15,654 nucleotides of DNA from a candidate division WOR-3 bacterium (GCA_039802265.1 JBDRWI010000053.1:1-15654); one strand, 5' to 3'. Shown: positions 268 through 15,022, counted from the first letter of the stretch. Notes: generated by a model from the sequence alone, not told the origin. Program-made: numbers and translations.

Positions 268-696
268 TCACACATTCAGAAATTTCAAAGCGAAATTGTA
301 AAATGATGTTGCATTATCAAGAATATCCTGCGCTGATTCTTTAGCATAGATATATCCATAATCGGCATCTTCACGAAGGTCCATTGCAGTCCGTAAATTA
401 TCAAGATGTTTAGATGGCATTTCTCTTTTATTTACAAGTAACTCCTGCAATGCAATCAATAAACAACGATGGCTCTTTTCACGATAACCTTTTCGAAAAA
501 TCAGCGCCCTTGCACAATGGAACATTGCATAATACCCTTGAATAGTAGCCCACTTTGCATCGCCAGCTTTCAAAGATTGCCTTGCTCTCTCAAGGTCATA
601 AGCAGCAGCGTTAAGTTCCTTTCTTATCATCTTATCTGTTGCCTTGAATGGTTTCAACTTACCATCATCAAGACAATTTTGAAATTCTTTATTCAT
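268..696 (-). CDS. HEPN domain protein (UPF0332/COG1895-like), putative toxin of an MNT-HEPN pair
   Basis: Motifs GYYAMFHCARAL, REKSH and REDADY are typical of this HEPN group. The start is placed at ATG 696 (MNKEF), which has GGGAGA upstream and overlaps the MNT stop by 8 bp (ATGAATAA). Confidence 0.85.
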   Translation of the reverse strand: MNKEFQNCLDDGKLKPFKATDKMIRKELNAAAYDLERARQSLKAGDAKWATIQGYYAMFHCARALIFRKGYREKSHRCLLIALQELLVNKREMPSKHLDNLRTAMDLREDADYGYIYAKESAQDILDNATSFYNFALKFLNV

Positions 697-1210
697 TCTT
701 CTCCCAGAGCACAATACCTCTTGTAATCTGTTCAAACAAAGAAGGGTCTTTTTTCTTCAAACTGGAAAATTCAATACTGTTCATAACTACAGGCACAATC
801 CTGGTATTTTTAGCGAGAATTTTTCTAACCCGGGTTGCGTCGTTTGTTATGACCAGAAGGTCAATATCACTCTCAGAAGTATCTTCCCCCTTTGCCGAAC
901 TGCCAAATAGTATTACCCGACGCGCACTATCTCCCAATTTCTTGACGAGTGGCATTAGCGACGATGTGGTAAACAATATCTTCAATTGCTTTATTACAGG
1001 ATTACCTGAATCAATCTGATAAAATTTCATACGACCTTTTCTATTGCAATAAATCAGACCATCTTTTGAAAGTTCATTTAATACCCGACTGGTAAAACCC
1101 AGACTTAAACCGGTCTTTCGTGAAACTTCGCGCATATGGACATCTTTATCCGCCTCTATCAAAAATTTAAGAATGGTTAGGGGTGATTTTTTGTTCATCC
1201 AGGTGAACAT
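689..1210 (-). CDS. Winged-HTH plus minimal nucleotidyltransferase (MNT), putative antitoxin
   Basis: N-terminal HTH (VHMREVSRKTGLSLGFTSRVLNELSKDGLI) and C-terminal GS-x10-DxD motif (FGSSAKGEDTSESDIDLLVI). GGAGA RBS upstream; translationally coupled to the HEPN gene. Confidence 0.88.
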   Translation of the reverse strand: MFTWMNKKSPLTILKFLIEADKDVHMREVSRKTGLSLGFTSRVLNELSKDGLIYCNRKGRMKFYQIDSGNPVIKQLKILFTTSSLMPLVKKLGDSARRVILFGSSAKGEDTSESDIDLLVITNDATRVRKILAKNTRIVPVVMNSIEFSSLKKKDPSLFEQITRGIVLWEKNE

Positions 1211-5895: not shown

Positions 5896-8436
5896 CTACT
5901 TTTTGTAGTATTTTGAATAATACTTATAGTAATAGTGATAATAATAACTTCCTGATTTTGGTGGTGCACCATTTATCACCACACCAATTATTTCTGCGTG
6001 TGCCGATTTCAGTATATCACTGGCATTCTCCAGTTCTTTAAATCCAGTCTTGCTATACATTGCAGTAATCAGGACACCGTCACAGAACCGCGCCAGGTAT
6101 GTGGCGTCAGCAAAGAGCAGGATAGGCAGACCATCAATAATGATATAGTCATATTCTTTCTTGAGTTTCTGCAATATCTGATTCATCTTCTCCGATTCAA
6201 GGAAGATAAATGGATTCGCCGGAATATTACCAACGGGCAGGAGGTAGAGGGTGACGGAGGTATCCCGGGCTATCTGCTCTTTGTCTTCCTCGGCACTGGT
6301 CGCCTGGTAATGAATGACCGTGGATTCCAAATTCGCATTTCCGCTCAGAATATCAAATATACCATTTGCCTTTTTCATCTTTAAGACATCGGTGAGATGC
6401 CCCCGCTTTTTACGAAAGTCGGTATCAATTAAAAGGACTCTCCTACCGGCATTTGCCATCACATAACCGAGATTCAGGGCAACAAATGTCTTACCCACCT
6501 CTGGACCGGGTGATGCGATATAGATAACACGGTACTGCTTCTCCGGATGGGCAAATTCAAGGTGAACCGATAGTTTTCGGAATGCCTCAAATTCGGCGGA
6601 TGAACGGTCCTGGACAAATTCCAGTAAACGCCGGAGCCTGGGTGATTCCTTCAATCCCAGAAGATTTGCCGAGATTTGTCCGATATACTCAAGACTCAGA
6701 CTTGGTTTGATTCTTTTCTCCTCAGCATTTAGCAGAGAAGGGATTGTGCCATAGATTGAGAGATTAAGTCGCTCCTTGATTAGTTCCGGGTCCTTTATTG
6801 TATTATCAAAATATTCAACGACAAAGACAACTGCAGTGCCAATCAGCACTGCAAAGAAGAAAGACAAAAATATTGAAAGCAAAACCCGACGGGGATTGAC
6901 CGGGGTATTCTGGACAAACGGCGGATTTATCAGTTTGATGTCCGATGTTACTCCTGCCTCCTGGACCCGCGTCTCTTCAAGTTTCTCGGAAAAGAATGTA
7001 TACAACTTCTCGGCGGTTTCCTTATCCCTTTCCAGCCGGGCAAGGTTGATTTCATCCGATGGGATATTCTCAAGTTTGAACTGCAATGCCTTTATCTGAT
7101 TTGCCACACCCTGGATATCGGTCTTGATTGTCCGGACCCGACGCCCTATCTCATCCTTGAGTTGTTCTTTTAGCCCATCGTATTTTGCCTTGAACTCGGC
7201 ATACCTGGGATGGTTTGTTGAATACTCCTTTAATATCCCTTTCAGGTCGGCATCAACCTGAATTAACTGAGAGTATAGTTGCTGGATAATGGGTTCGGAG
7301 ATCATGGTCGTGGCAAAATTCAATGGCAGGGTGCTCAAGGTATCGGCTGAGAGGTAATTGTTAATATCGTTGAGAATCTCCTCTTCAATCTCCAGTTGAT
7401 TCTTTCTTGACTCTAATGTTGATATCTGATTTATAAGGGCCTGGGTTGATGCCCTTAAATCGGCAATCTTTTTGGTTTCTTTAAATAGCCTTATTCTTTC
7501 TTCAAGTTCATTCAAACGCGCCTGATATAAATTGAGTTGTGACTCAATGAAATTCCGGGACTGGACAAACTGGAGGCTCTTTTCAAGGATATTTTCTTTT
7601 ATCAGATAATCAGCAAGGGCACGGGCAATCTGCAGCCCCTGCTTTTTGTCTCCCCAGTAGAATTCAATCCTTAAGATACCAATAAGACTCATCCCCGGAA
7701 AGATTGTCTTGGCGGTAACTGCCTTTTTCCCTGCCTGCTCACCAGAGACCGGCACACCCGAGCGATCGCCCGCCCTTTCAACCTTGTCTGCCTCAAGGAC
7801 CTTTACGGCAATTGAGTTGCGCAGGGCAACTGCCATGCGATGCCGGGGATAGAATGAAATTGAATATGTCTTCGCGAGATTTGGGGTATGAAACGAATCA
7901 ATTGTAAACTCAAGTGCCCCAAGATTGATGTATTCACCAAATTTCTTCTCAATTGATTCGTTATTTACCCTTAATGCAAATCCCCGGCCATTTTCCAGGA
8001 TCCTCAGGATATAAGGACCCAGAGGCTGGTCAAAATCGTGCCTAATCTGCACTTTTATTGCTAATTCCGAACCGCCTTCCTTGACAAATGTATAAAGACC
8101 AAGGCTATCAACAACCTTTTCGGAAAGTTTCAGGCTCAAGAGGGTGGCGATTACCCGCTGGGTCACGGTACCGATCTGGGTCGTGGGTGCCTCGCTGGTG
8201 CTACCAAAGAATCCCTCTACCGGACGATTCTCGGCAATGCCGACATCAAAACTGGAAAGGTATATTGGTGTATAGGGTCTTGATACACGGAAGAGAAGAA
8301 TCACTAAAAAGACAGGAAGGGCAAATATGAAAAATAACCGGCGCCGCCGGAGAAACTTATACCACAATTCCTGAAGGCTTAATGGTTTCTCTGCTTCAAG
8401 AAGATACTCTGCGGGTTCGCTATCACCTTGTTTCAT
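5896..8436 (-). CDS. wzc: Polysaccharide co-polymerase / bacterial tyrosine autokinase (Wzc/GumC-CapB type)
   Basis: N-terminal TM, periplasmic coiled coil and second TM after PVNPRR. Kinase motifs EAFRKL, Walker A SPGPEVGKT, Walker A' LIDTDFRK, Walker B YIIIDGLP, IIGVVIN and a C-terminal Tyr cluster. Confidence 0.9.
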   Translation of the reverse strand: MKQGDSEPAEYLLEAEKPLSLQELWYKFLRRRRLFFIFALPVFLVILLFRVSRPYTPIYLSSFDVGIAENRPVEGFFGSTSEAPTTQIGTVTQRVIATLLSLKLSEKVVDSLGLYTFVKEGGSELAIKVQIRHDFDQPLGPYILRILENGRGFALRVNNESIEKKFGEYINLGALEFTIDSFHTPNLAKTYSISFYPRHRMAVALRNSIAVKVLEADKVERAGDRSGVPVSGEQAGKKAVTAKTIFPGMSLIGILRIEFYWGDKKQGLQIARALADYLIKENILEKSLQFVQSRNFIESQLNLYQARLNELEERIRLFKETKKIADLRASTQALINQISTLESRKNQLEIEEEILNDINNYLSADTLSTLPLNFATTMISEPIIQQLYSQLIQVDADLKGILKEYSTNHPRYAEFKAKYDGLKEQLKDEIGRRVRTIKTDIQGVANQIKALQFKLENIPSDEINLARLERDKETAEKLYTFFSEKLEETRVQEAGVTSDIKLINPPFVQNTPVNPRRVLLSIFLSFFFAVLIGTAVVFVVEYFDNTIKDPELIKERLNLSIYGTIPSLLNAEEKRIKPSLSLEYIGQISANLLGLKESPRLRRLLEFVQDRSSAEFEAFRKLSVHLEFAHPEKQYRVIYIASPGPEVGKTFVALNLGYVMANAGRRVLLIDTDFRKKRGHLTDVLKMKKANGIFDILSGNANLESTVIHYQATSAEEDKEQIARDTSVTLYLLPVGNIPANPFIFLESEKMNQILQKLKKEYDYIIIDGLPILLFADATYLARFCDGVLITAMYSKTGFKELENASDILKSAHAEIIGVVINGAPPKSGSYYYHYYYKYYSKYYKK

Positions 8437-10852: not shown

Positions 10853-13372
10853 CTAACGGCTTTTCTGTAATATGTCAATCAAAAATCTTGATGGTAGTTG
10901 TTGCCGGCCTGACCGGTACTTCGGATATAGAAGATATAATCTTTTCTGCGCCCGGGTTACAGCAACATAGCACAACCTCCGCTCCTCTTCCAAATCCTGC
11001 TGGGAGGATAGACTCCGGGTCATCGGAAAGATGTCTTCTGTGAGGTCAACCAAAAAGACCACCGGAAACTCCATCCCTTTGGCACTGTGCACGGTCATAA
11101 GTTTTACGGTATCCTTTGTCCAGTTTGCCAGGTCCATCTCCTGAATTAGTTTCAATTCGCTTAAGAATTTATTAATGGTAATCCCTGAGTCAGAGTAGTT
11201 CCGTGCAAACTCCAGAAATTCATCAATATTCTCCCCCTTCTGCCGTGTAAGACCAACGATTTCACTGATGATGTTATAAGGAGTCAATAGATTTAGATTC
11301 TGGATATGGTGTTCAATAACCTTTTCTGCCTTAACCAAGGCATTCTTTTTGATGCCTAAAATGGCGCATGCCCTTTTTAAAAAATCTTTCTGGTCTTCAT
11401 CCGGGGTATATGCTGAAAGCAACTCCAGATATCCGATAATCGGCTTAAACTCCGCCTTTTCCTGGAATGATACACCGCTGATCAGGGTATAAGGAATGCC
11501 GGACTCTTTTAATCCTTCTTCGTATATCTGGGCAAGATAGTTCATCCGGTATAATATTACAATATCCTGATAGGTAAAATCCAGTTCTAAAAGTTCTTTT
11601 ATCTCCCTTACAATATAGTCAACCTCATCATCGGGTGAGGTCGCGGCATAGACAATTACCTCAGCGGTATCAAGATTGGGTATTGCAGTGGACTCCCGCT
11701 GCATTATGCTGTTTGCCACCTCAAGGATTGACTGGGGAAGTCGGAAACTACGATTTAGATTAAATACCTTGGTCTCGGGAAAGTCCCGGGGGACACGATA
11801 GAGCAATTTTTTATCAGCACCCCGCCAGCCATAGATTGCCTGGTCCTCATCACCGGTAAAAAAGAAGTTATTCCTTACCAAGAGTGAAATAAAAATGTAT
11901 TGTGCCAGATTGATATCCTGGAGTTCGTCAACAAAGAGGTATTCAAAGAGTTCCTGATAGAACTCCCTTAAATCGGGAAATTCCTTCAACAGTTCTGTAG
12001 CATAGATAATCAGGTCGTCATAATCAAGGATGTTGTTTGCCCTCAGATATGACTGGTATTGCTTGTAAACACTCAAACACTGCTCTTCCCACTGATTCCG
12101 GGGTTTGAATCCTTCCGGGGTAATAGCCCTTGCCTTTAATAACTGAATTGCCTTGATGACCGCATTGAGTCGGTATTTGCCGACCTTGAAATCTAAACGG
12201 GCAAAGAGCTTCTTTGGCTCTTCAACAATGAAGTCTTCGCCTATATCAAGTCTTTCTGCATCCCTTCGGAGAATCCTTAAGGCAAGCGTATGGAATGTGC
12301 CAATCCAGAGTTCATAATTGGGCTGAGTTATAAACTGACTGATCCTCTGCCTTATGTCATTTGCCGCCTTGTTGGTAAAGGTACAGACAAGTAGCCTGGA
12401 TGGAGGGATTCCCCGTTCAATCAACCGGCGCACACCATAGGTCAGGGTTGTCGTCTTACCACAGCCGGCCTGTCCCAGGACCAAAAGTTTACCATCAATT
12501 GATTCTATAATCGCCTCCTGCTCCGGTGAAAGGGTAATCTCCTGCGGCTTCTTTGCGATAATGGCAACCGGTTTTTCAATCTTTATACCCCTGCTCTTCT
12601 TTTTTAAACCTTCAAGTATCGACCCGGTATCGGGTCTTGTCTCGGGTGTCGGGCTCAAACACCTGATGACAATGTCATCAAGATAGTCAGGAACATCACG
12701 GCGCACAAGGCTGGGAATGAGAAGTTTCCCCTTTAAAATTTTTTCTTTCAAGCCGTCCAGACTGTCATCAAGGAATGGCGGAACCCCGGTGAGCAGTTCA
12801 TAAAGAATGACACCCACACTCCAGATATCAGATTTTTCACTGTAAGAGCCAGCCCAGGACTCCGGTGCCATATAGATTGGGGTTCCGGCGGTGGAGGCGG
12901 CAAGAGAACCCGATTTAATGAATCTTGCCAGTCCAAAATCGGTTATCTTCACAACATTATCTTCTGTCAACAAGATATTCTCCGGTTTGAGGTCACGATG
13001 GAGCACACCGCGGTTATGGGCATAACTTATTGCCTCCAGTATCTGATTTAATATCCATGTTGCCTGATTGATAGCAATACCCCCCTTTTTTATTATATCC
13101 CGCAATACATTTCCCTTGATATATTCCATTACCAGAACAAACTTATTGTCGATTATATCAATGTTGTAGAAGCGGACGATATTGGGATGATTCAAGGAGG
13201 CAAGGAGTTTTGCCTCATCCTTGAGCATCACAATATCTTCTTTTCGCATCCGGGAGATCTTTAAGGCAAACTCTGATTCAATTATTGTATCATAAGCCCG
13301 AAATACATCGCCAAACCTACCCCCGCCAAGCCATTCAATAATCTCGTATTTACCGAGTTTTTTTAAAAGCAT
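10853..13372 (-). CDS. Fusion of a Hanks-type Ser/Thr protein kinase (aa ~9-256) and a UvrD/PcrA/Rep-like SF1A helicase (aa ~281-839)
   Basis: Kinase: GGGRFG, ALK, HPNIV, HRDLKPEN, DFG, APE, DIWSVG. Helicase: GQAGCGKT, TFTNKAA, GTFH, VDELQD, GDEDQAIYGWRGA, ILYR, LMTVHSAKGMEF, EEERRLCYVAVTRA, PSRF. Single uninterrupted ORF. Confidence 0.93.
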   Translation of the reverse strand: MLLKKLGKYEIIEWLGGGRFGDVFRAYDTIIESEFALKISRMRKEDIVMLKDEAKLLASLNHPNIVRFYNIDIIDNKFVLVMEYIKGNVLRDIIKKGGIAINQATWILNQILEAISYAHNRGVLHRDLKPENILLTEDNVVKITDFGLARFIKSGSLAASTAGTPIYMAPESWAGSYSEKSDIWSVGVILYELLTGVPPFLDDSLDGLKEKILKGKLLIPSLVRRDVPDYLDDIVIRCLSPTPETRPDTGSILEGLKKKSRGIKIEKPVAIIAKKPQEITLSPEQEAIIESIDGKLLVLGQAGCGKTTTLTYGVRRLIERGIPPSRLLVCTFTNKAANDIRQRISQFITQPNYELWIGTFHTLALRILRRDAERLDIGEDFIVEEPKKLFARLDFKVGKYRLNAVIKAIQLLKARAITPEGFKPRNQWEEQCLSVYKQYQSYLRANNILDYDDLIIYATELLKEFPDLREFYQELFEYLFVDELQDINLAQYIFISLLVRNNFFFTGDEDQAIYGWRGADKKLLYRVPRDFPETKVFNLNRSFRLPQSILEVANSIMQRESTAIPNLDTAEVIVYAATSPDDEVDYIVREIKELLELDFTYQDIVILYRMNYLAQIYEEGLKESGIPYTLISGVSFQEKAEFKPIIGYLELLSAYTPDEDQKDFLKRACAILGIKKNALVKAEKVIEHHIQNLNLLTPYNIISEIVGLTRQKGENIDEFLEFARNYSDSGITINKFLSELKLIQEMDLANWTKDTVKLMTVHSAKGMEFPVVFLVDLTEDIFPMTRSLSSQQDLEEERRLCYVAVTRAQKRLYLLYPKYRSGRQQLPSRFLIDILQKSR

Positions 13373-13385
13373 AACAACAATTTTA

Positions 13386-13411
13386 AAAAAGACGCATCAG
13401 CAGGCTGATGC
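13386..13411 (-). terminator. Possible intrinsic terminator
   Basis: GCATCAG-CCTG-CTGATGC hairpin followed by GTC and a T-run on the minus strand, between the 288-aa gene and the kinase-helicase gene. Confidence 0.5.
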
Positions 13412-13443
13412 AGGCTGGAGAAAAGATACTCCGGGATGGGTGG

Positions 13444-14310
13444 TCATTCGGGGAATACCGAGATATGAACGGGTCTATCCGCAAACAAAACTGCCTGTCC
13501 AAGGAATTTTGCTTTTTTGAATCTTAAATGTTCCAGATTTTTTTCGGACATCCCAGTCTTTAGCACGGCGGTGATTTTGTCCATAAAGTCCTCTATATCC
13601 GGGCAGGTTCCACGGCACCTTTGATATTCAATCGCATCCAGGGCATAACTCCGCAATAACTTCTTTTCAAACTTCTGATAGATCTCCGGCGCAGCGAATA
13701 TATCACAGCCGAGGATTTGATTACCTGCCACGCCGATAAATCCAACTGTATTATGATTCAGACCGGAAAATCCTTCAAGATAGCGTTCAACCTCATCCGC
13801 GAGGTTTTCGTAGATTTCATGCATTGAGGATGTCCGGGAGCGAGTTCGGGTCACAGTAAGTTTGCGCTCAATCTCCTTCCAGACAGTCTGCTGGGTGTCA
13901 ACTTTCTTATTAACCGCTGAGGCGAGGATGGAACGAATCCGGGGATATGAGCAGTATCCGGTCTTGAATCCACCGATCTCTTCCCAGCGCCTTTCTTCGG
14001 CACAGATTACCGGGATCTGCCGTTGAGAATGCGCCCGGGCAATGATTGAGCGGGCAACGATGCGGTTCTGCAAGGAACCGGTAATCTCTTCACCATCAAT
14101 CATCAATACCGGTAGTCCACCGCCGTTATCAAATATGATCTTATTGACATCCGGGTTTTTCAATTCGGAAAAACTGCCCTTTTTACTCTCAAGCACCTCG
14201 TCAATTGTCGCAAGATTTAAGTTATTATTATCTGAACCATCCTTTATTGGAAAGATGGTCAGATTTCTCAAAAAGACTGGCTCGGCAAGATTAAAATTTA
14301 AATCCGTCAT
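13444..14310 (-). CDS. ARPP-1 / DUF6569-like protein
   Basis: Recognised from family-like motifs NLTIFPI, VN.....N....PVLMIDGEEI.G..QNRIV, IPVICAE..RW, QQTVW, GCDIF and KLLRSYALDA. AGGAGG RBS. Confidence 0.7.
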   Translation of the reverse strand: MTDLNFNLAEPVFLRNLTIFPIKDGSDNNNLNLATIDEVLESKKGSFSELKNPDVNKIIFDNGGGLPVLMIDGEEITGSLQNRIVARSIIARAHSQRQIPVICAEERRWEEIGGFKTGYCSYPRIRSILASAVNKKVDTQQTVWKEIERKLTVTRTRSRTSSMHEIYENLADEVERYLEGFSGLNHNTVGFIGVAGNQILGCDIFAAPEIYQKFEKKLLRSYALDAIEYQRCRGTCPDIEDFMDKITAVLKTGMSEKNLEHLRFKKAKFLGQAVLFADRPVHISVFPE

Positions 14311-14318
14311 CTTTCCTC

Positions 14319-14762
14319 CTACGGACTATAGAATGCCCCAAAATGGTATACCACAGACCATTCAGTATACCAGGTCCAGTTCCGGCTATAGGCACGGACC
14401 CGCCAGAAATAGTAGCCATTACGATTTATAGTGAAGTTATAAGAAGAATAGTCCACATCAATCAAATTTTCACCGGTCAGGGCACTTGAATCATCTTTGA
14501 CGATTTCCAGTTGATAATATTCAGCACCATTCACACTACTCCAGGTAAGTAAAACATTATGGGGAAAAGGTGTTCCATACCAGATGGCGGTATCGTTTTT
14601 AGGACTAATGAGTTGGGGCGGTGCGGGTGGTGGATAGAGGGAATCAAACTTTGGTTCATAATCGTGGGGGTTCTTACAACCGCCACCGAGGTTCAAAAAA
14701 AAATAGATTGTGCCTGTTAAAATGCACAAATAAAAGATTTTCTTCTTTTTATTCCCTACCAT
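14319..14762 (-). CDS. Putative lipoprotein with a fibronectin-III/Ig-like domain
   Basis: Basic N-terminus, hydrophobic stretch and lipobox-like LGGGC. PQLISP.N, LTWSSV.GA.YYQLEI and YFWRVRA...WS motifs. GAGGAGG RBS. Confidence 0.72.
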   Translation of the reverse strand: MVGNKKKKIFYLCILTGTIYFFLNLGGGCKNPHDYEPKFDSLYPPPAPPQLISPKNDTAIWYGTPFPHNVLLTWSSVNGAEYYQLEIVKDDSSALTGENLIDVDYSSYNFTINRNGYYFWRVRAYSRNWTWYTEWSVVYHFGAFYSP

Positions 14763-14786
14763 TCTGCCTCCTCGGATATATCAAAT

Positions 14787-14872
14787 CCCTCTCCCCCTGT
14801 GGAAGAGGGCAAGGGTGAGGGGTAACCAATTTTATCACCCTCACCTTAATCCTCTCCCGTCAAGGGAGAGGA
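14787..14872. repeat. Inverted pair of BoxC/REP-like repeats
   Basis: CCCTCTCCCCCTGTGGAAGAGGGCAAGGGTGAGGGG followed by CACCCTCACCTTAATCCTCTCCC-GTCAA-GGGAGAGGA. Confidence 0.75.
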
Positions 14873-15022
14873 TAATCTTATTAAATTTCATAGCATTTTT
14901 ATGCACATAAGTAGCGCGACTACATACCCTTGATTTAATAAGGGGGCTATTAAGCCTTACCCTATTAAAATTATTTTTCTTTTTTCGCGTTACCATAAGT
15001 CTTTTTAGTTTTATTAAAAGAC

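Follow-up and report, generated by a model that had tools for sequence, protein, structure and literature searches.

A conserved Ser/Thr kinase-UvrD/PcrA helicase fusion of the WOR-3 phylum and its ARPP-1 partner gene point to a candidate DNA-linked signalling pair

The 15,654-nt contig JBDRWI010000053.1 of a candidate division WOR-3 bacterium (GCA_039802265.1), which in its entirety forms the window analysed here, carries a fusion of a Ser/Thr protein kinase with a UvrD/PcrA-type helicase. The fusion is real, conserved and uncharacterised, and is a candidate for DNA-linked kinase signalling put together from known domains and an ARPP-1 domain protein (ARPP) encoded by a neighbouring gene. Fusion and ARPP are kept and lost together, which points to a DNA-linked signalling pair and not to a mobile anti-virus system. 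The explanation that we favour, with confidence about evenly balanced, is that the fusion is a chromosomal kinase that tracks DNA and acts together with ARPP in signalling DNA stress.

The fusion was identified as a single open reading frame without internal stop, with kinase and helicase in one chain. The gene and its parts are as follows.

10853..13372, minus strand: Ser/Thr kinase-UvrD/PcrA helicase fusion gene, 839 aa (ORF, Pfam, relatives, AlphaFold model)
12614..13348, minus strand: Hanks-type RD kinase domain, aa 9-253, of a family-specific clade (Pfam, invariant residues, profile gap, tree)
12533..12607, minus strand: Lys-rich linker, aa 256-280, unconserved and probably flexible (Lys count, 16% mean identity, pLDDT)
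10868..12532, minus strand: SF1A helicase core, aa 281-835, with every motif present (Pfam, alignment, fold match)
11123..11452, minus strand: shortened and divergent 2B subdomain, about aa 641-750 (motif IVa-to-V span, 23% mean identity, no RGIG-like motif)

Pfam matches were obtained to Pkinase at residues 9-253 (E 9e-60), UvrD-helicase at 281-532 (E 3e-61) and UvrD_C (E 2e-48), and the linker at 256-281 holds 7 Lys per 26 aa. Since the highest hydropathy of any 19-residue window was only 1.49, within the kinase, the protein has no transmembrane (TM) segment. An initial sequence-only reading, which had described an RD kinase, a Lys-rich linker and an SF1A helicase without TM segment, is thus confirmed by ORF, Pfam, motifs and hydropathy. 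The translation contains the kinase motifs GGGRFG, K38, E53, HRDLKPEN, DFG, GTP and APE, and the features of a Hanks-type RD kinase, i.e. Gly loop, Lys-Glu pair, HRD, DFG, APE and activation-loop Thr. Helicase motifs are GQAGCGKT, TFTNKAA, DELQD, GDEDQAIYGWRGA and SFRL in the first part and YRMN, TVHSAKGMEF and EERRLCYVAVTRA in the second; these correspond to motifs Q, I, Ia, II, III, IV, IVa, V and VI, all of which are present and align to PcrA 1PJR.

PcrA 1PJR was the best match of the helicase by sequence and by predicted fold, and all ATP- and ssDNA-binding motifs are common to the fusion and the PcrA/UvrD/Rep enzymes (PDB 1PJR, 2IS1, 1UAA, 9DCI), its best sequence and fold matches; a 3'-5' DNA-dependent motor is predicted from the motifs. 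In contrast to these enzymes, the fusion has an N-terminal kinase, a 2B subdomain about 50 aa shorter, a short C-terminal tail and a clade of its own, and it scored below the NCBIfam cut-offs for pcrA (411 versus 911 bits), uvrD and rep. The predicted kinase fold resembled PknB (TM-score 0.82-0.90), and the RD core is like that of PknB/PrkC, but their TM helix and PASTA repeats are missing (219 versus 450 bits). In the AlphaFold model (pTM 0.59), linker pLDDT fell below 50 at 261-276, and the linker probably tethers the kinase flexibly to the helicase. In the model, no fixed contact between kinase and helicase is evident, which counts against the favoured explanation.

An assembly chimera or a singleton is ruled out by relatives, distribution and read data. 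Among the best 120 relatives listed (47-99% identity), 116 were at least 800 aa long and contained both domains. At the junction, a contig from run X1 spans 11740-12931 with 5 differing letters in 1192 bases; as this run may be near the source sample, it is the relatives that carry weight against a chimera. A split form was likewise rejected, with no stand-alone kinase of the same type in 201 genomes. The earlier reading knew of no characterised kinase-UvrD/PcrA fusion, and our literature search, within a coverage of few subscription papers, returned no published description; the accessible part of the CoCoNuT paper mentions no such fusion.

The relatives that carry a name belong to WOR-3. Within this phylum, the fusion was present as a single copy in 79 of 201 genomes, about 10 of the 79 being partial matches. 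A kinase-profile search of the 201 genomes gave 77 matches of at least 333 bits, each from a different genome and each located at the fusion, with the next match at 254 bits; two further fusion genomes carry partial pieces at contig edges. The fusion occurred in 20 of 40 families, for 17 of these in every sampled genome. The genome under study (89% complete) encodes, besides the fusion, an ordinary PcrA and a second kinase. Fusion helicases, including members named Thermosulfidibacteraceae and bacterium JZ-2024, formed a single clade separate from stand-alone PcrA (SH-aLRT 100), and the fusion kinases likewise one clade (SH-aLRT 99). A metagenome scan for Thermosulfidibacter-type loci yielded general kinases only.

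Family groupings of the fusion broadly agreed with an RpoB tree, which was a quick tree of 41 genomes with five fusion-bearing or fusion-lacking families (e.g. f7, f12, f25) outside it. On this tree the presence of the fusion changes state seven times, five of them forced by strong branches. None of 50,697 phage and 72,556 plasmid records covered 80% of the protein, and viral contigs held distant kinases only, the best match being at most 39% identical. Apart from ARPP-1, the 54 recurrent neighbours scanned were 53 housekeeping, envelope or unknown genes. The pattern of the fusion is one of old vertical descent with losses, not that of a mobile island.

The partner gene, overlooked in the sequence-only reading, lies directly upstream of the fusion.

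13444..14310, minus strand: partner gene coding for ARPP-1 (PF20208), 288 aa; Q81 and C103 invariant (Pfam, adjacency, co-occurrence)
13383..13412, minus strand: hairpin and T-run within the 71 nt that separate ARPP from the fusion (sequence; similar hairpins in two relatives)

Its PF20208 score was 205 bits against a cut-off of 27, and ARPP-1 was the sole neighbour common across fusion-bearing families. ARPP was adjacent and co-oriented in 30 of 60 fusion loci from nine families; it precedes the fusion in 28 of these and follows it in 2, and 19 of the 30 pairs overlap or are separated by at most 8 nt. Against a tight link, ARPP lies away from the fusion, among unrelated housekeeping genes, in the other 30 loci. 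No third conserved partner was found among the recurrent neighbours of fusion or ARPP, and no repair gene recurred beside either, the latter counting against DNA-stress signalling.

Any ARPP match was found in 94 of the 201 genomes, in two clades of 69 and 24 rows (support 100). The orthologue of the roughly 300-aa clade, assigned by score and including two partial matches, occurred in 76 of 79 fusion genomes versus 1 of 122 others. In the single exception (G155), the gene lies 12 nt from a contig end, the fusion being expected beyond that end; those three fusion genomes in which no orthologue was found are 75, 80 and 93% complete. ARPP state equalled fusion state in 40 of the 41 genomes on the RpoB tree, with joint loss in several lineages, and a sign test on five independent pairs gave p 0.0625, the lowest attainable at n=5. 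LexA, a patchy control gene, did not follow the fusion pattern. A second, longer ARPP (ca. 340 aa) of the other clade is located in this genome at G000:C19:34133-34987 (L320), and the longer-clade ARPP follows a TonB gene in 5 of 20 such loci.

These patterns bear on whether the parts work together at all. Domains merely tethered and uncoupled, with an ARPP co-distribution due to common history only, would agree with the flexible linker, the pTM and the correlation of both genes' distances with those of RpoB (0.63, 0.53). We regard this as very unlikely, because the fusion was never split in 201 genomes, the pair was lost jointly in separate lineages and is adjacent in nine families, and a fusion-ARPP distance correlation of 0.38 persisted after RpoB was removed (17 genomes, non-independent pairs). 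It is also opposed by another kinase-UvrD fusion, which probably arose independently. This fusion of Blastocatellia (P0184 type, ca. 965 aa) has the same domain order, is common (300 matching stretches), and coexists with a stand-alone PcrA. A separate origin is probable, since its helicase is sister to a stand-alone paralogue from Blastocatellia and its kinase falls within a group of other kinases; a single origin of both fusions was not rejected by an AU test of the kinase tree only (p 0.135), and neither tree favours one origin. No ARPP was found within 6 kb in 80 Blastocatellia loci, and 61 genomes gave no sign of co-occurrence (fusion in 5, a count that is possibly too low with 14 candidates scored per genome, ARPP in 29, and 3 of the 5 with ARPP). 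A universal link of ARPP to kinase-UvrD fusions is thereby ruled out. Other kinase-helicase clusters in the ESM Atlas join a kinase to Upf1-like or DinG-like domains, in Bacillota, Actinomycetota and Chloroflexota.

The ARPP protein has the appearance of an enzyme. Residues Q81, R83, C103, E105, R108 and W109 were invariant in 54 of 54 ARPP rows, the last four forming a C-x-E-x-x-R-W motif, and the predicted model was confident (pLDDT 87). Fold searches with this model returned no clear solved-fold match (best Z 5.4 over 62 residues) and no match to Cys phosphatases. In the accessible text of Iyer et al. 2022 (PMC9503650), the domain is regarded as a probable enzyme whose Cys and Gln are conserved; it is reported from ADP-ribosylglycohydrolase (ARG)-centred conflict systems and with HIRAN, WYL and a deacetylase, and is proposed to cross-link to sugars in an SRAP-like manner. 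The present gene shares the domain with its invariant Cys and Gln, whereas its kinase-helicase context differs from the published ones, being absent from those given in the main text as accessible. A covalent cross-linking of ARPP to abasic DNA is here a proposal by analogy with SRAP/HMCES.

Where ARPP stands apart from the fusion, it often precedes a diadenylate cyclase gene (10 of 40 loci), a RelA/SpoT gene (8) or a Nudix gene (8). Such neighbours suit a target other than damaged DNA, namely RNA, R-loops, a stalled RNA polymerase or a nucleotide signal that ARPP would make or remove, as does the work of PcrA-family enzymes at transcription conflicts. The neighbours are, however, limited to a few related families, and the fusion is missing the C-terminal tail of PcrA, which reportedly binds RNA polymerase (78 aa follow motif V, against a median of 175). 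We consider a non-damage target quite unlikely.

Defence against phages or plasmids had been suggested alongside signalling. In a vertically kept system of this kind, the helicase would sense invader DNA, the kinase would arrest the cell, and ARPP would handle ADP-ribose or modified sugars. Kinases such as Stk2 and PglW (BREX type 2) belong to anti-phage systems. In favour of defence, the fusion-ARPP pair was repeatedly lost, the evolutionary rate of the fusion is about 1.7 times that of RpoB, and the PADLOC profiles GajB, mad6 and PD-T4-6 match the separate domains. GajB is accompanied in Gabija by an adjacent GajA nuclease; its profiles matched the fusion helicase only, with no GajA-like gene among the recurrent neighbours. 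The fusion reached 88 of the 990 bits required for PglW and 184 of the 460 bits required for Mad6 of MADS. The first description of ARPP came from conflict systems centred on ARG (PMC9503650, accessible text), but linked ARG and REase genes were not found among the recurrent neighbours, and ARG was not found in this genome (89% complete).

Mokosh type I likewise has a Ser/Thr kinase and a superfamily 1 helicase in one chain, which speaks for defence, its MkoA combining the kinase with an Upf1-like helicase and acting with a PLD nuclease in the text available to us (10.1101/2022.05.11.491447). The parallel drawn to it earlier fails, as helicase type and partner both differ: the fusion helicase is of UvrD type (E 3e-61; AAA_11 below its cut-off; top folds PcrA/UvrD) and not of Upf1 type, no PLD nuclease was found among the 54 recurrent neighbours scanned or in the window, the partner is ARPP, and the pattern is chromosomal and vertical. 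Defence is further opposed by the single copy with all-or-none presence by family, by the lack of any defence family among the scanned recurrent neighbours (54 of the fusion, 41 of ARPP), and by the phage, plasmid and viral searches above. It is less likely than DNA-stress signalling, and we hold it to be unlikely. Of the former view of a signalling or defence protein, the real, uncharacterised and conserved fusion with signalling as best inference stands, whereas the defence half sits poorly with the single copy, the vertical pattern and the housekeeping neighbours.

Conservation of the active sites was recorded over 60 fusions across the phylum (61 loci, one without called ORF). Invariant in 60 of 60 were the kinase residues K38, E53, D127, K129, N132, D145, G147, T164 and D182, and the helicase residues K306, T307, D482, E483, Q485, Y514, R544, R609, H762, K765, R799 and R807, with roles as in PknB and PcrA; the RD arginine R126 was kept in 55 and replaced by Gly in the other 5. 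Relatives and invariant residues thus bear out that the fusion is conserved with two intact active sites. Mean identity across the fusions was 51% in the kinase, on par with the best-kept helicase segment (the last 2A part, 54%), 39% in 1A/1B, 23% in 2B and 16% in the linker.

The 2B subdomain is reduced. The motif IVa-to-V span, which holds 2B, measured 153 aa in the fusion versus 201 in the ordinary PcrA of the same genome, with medians of 176 aa in the 47 of 60 fusions in which it was measurable and 202 in 75 stand-alone enzymes. The RGIG-like motif of 2B, which binds duplex DNA, was detected in 1 of 47 fusions versus 53 of 75 stand-alone enzymes. This shortening suggests that the usual duplex-binding brake may be lost. 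In UvrD1 and Rep 2B is autoinhibitory, and UvrD1 without it harms cells, according to the accessible part of PMC13646824.

Such a helicase could itself be what the kinase controls. As a built-in switch without outside targets, the kinase would then turn unwinding on or off by phosphorylating the motor, and ARPP would reverse or modulate this. The short and unconserved 2B with its rare RGIG-like motif, the harm done by unbridled UvrD1, the invariant C-x-E-x-x-R-W motif of ARPP, and the failure to find FHA or PP2C genes in this genome (89% complete) all suit this reversed control. It is opposed by linkers and 2B subdomains in which no conserved Ser/Thr was found, by the ordinary PcrA of this genome, which is also missing the RGIG-like motif, and by the ARPP model, which had no structural match to Cys phosphatases in searches with no clear fold match. 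We judge it improbable.

In the favoured explanation, fusion and ARPP would form a chromosomal module of two genes, old within WOR-3, that signals DNA stress. With its motifs intact, the PcrA-type domain would bind and track single-stranded DNA using ATP, carrying the tethered soluble kinase along, which would be switched on where motors load or stack. Activation would probably proceed by trans-autophosphorylation of the activation loop, where T164 is invariant, and the state of the DNA would thereby be turned into phosphorylation. For ARPP, linkage and joint loss with the fusion are observed; as a functional partner it would most likely act on the same damaged DNA, or serve as target or reset of the kinase, and routine repair would remain with the ordinary PcrA. 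A precedent is the ssDNA-dependent kinase YabT, which phosphorylates RecA (PMC4754617, accessible text); the sensor proposed for the fusion is instead a whole helicase. No FHA reader, PP2C phosphatase, SRAP or ARG gene was found in this genome (89% complete). The FHA and PP2C result counts against the module, as do the sign test with only p 0.0625, the three fusion genomes without an ARPP orthologue, the hairpin and T-run between the genes, the Blastocatellia fusion that lacks the ARPP link, and the first description of ARPP in conflict systems. A replacement of SOS is ruled out, since LexA occurs in this genome and in many others, both fusion-bearing and fusion-lacking.

A bolder version of DNA-stress signalling, which we consider distinctly doubtful, has ARPP trap abasic sites or blocked 3' ends via Cys103; the brake-less helicase would stall and stack, and the kinases would cross-activate and phosphorylate replication or division proteins. 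If true, this would be a bacterial lesion-capture and kinase checkpoint, independent of LexA and convergent with eukaryotic fork checkpoints, and the fusion of a kinase with a motor would have been invented twice in bacteria.

Several observations concern the surroundings. The hairpin and T-run at 13383..13412 may, by their sequence, uncouple ARPP and fusion in this genome; with 5 terminator-like sites found versus 4.7 expected, the hairpin finding is overall at chance level. That the hairpin is a genome-wide repeat was ruled out, as no more than 3 copies were found when up to 3 mismatches were allowed. REP-like palindromic units separate ARPP and fusion in the near relatives L031, L035, L036 and L040, and the hairpin looks like a worn copy of these. 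Upstream of ARPP, a 147-aa lipoprotein-like gene without Pfam match (14319-14762, minus strand) recurs directly in 14 of 60 loci, all from the two nearest families, which is probably local synteny. At 14770-14950, a hairpin-bearing intergenic repeat with 55 BLAST matches in the genome showed, in runs X1 and X2, very high contig depth and numerous loose ends, by its look a small dispersed repeat element. Elsewhere in the window, an HTH-nucleotidyltransferase (MNT) and HEPN pair (268-1210, minus strand) resembles a toxin-antitoxin module, and a Wzc-like polysaccharide chain-length protein (5896-8436, minus strand) that combines GNVR and P-loop domains with a C-terminus rich in Tyr is likely a bacterial tyrosine kinase. 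In family f16 (L087-L090, L081), dnaA and dnaN lie at a distance of two to three genes from the fusion, which is thus close to where replication likely starts. M54 or M48 zinc metalloproteases adjoin the fusion in two families (L048, L049, L053-L055, L057), in numbers too small to weigh; they would be of interest if ARPP forms DNA-protein cross-links.

Few bacterial Ser/Thr kinases activated by DNA are known, and no published one with a UvrD-type motor of its own was found. The pair supplies ARPP, a family without solved fold or assay, with a tight partner, and thereby with a concrete test. As a natural helicase with a cut-down 2B, the fusion also bears on the dispute over 2B as a brake or a wrench. 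Both genes are soluble and expressible, which makes the main questions directly testable despite an uncultured host.
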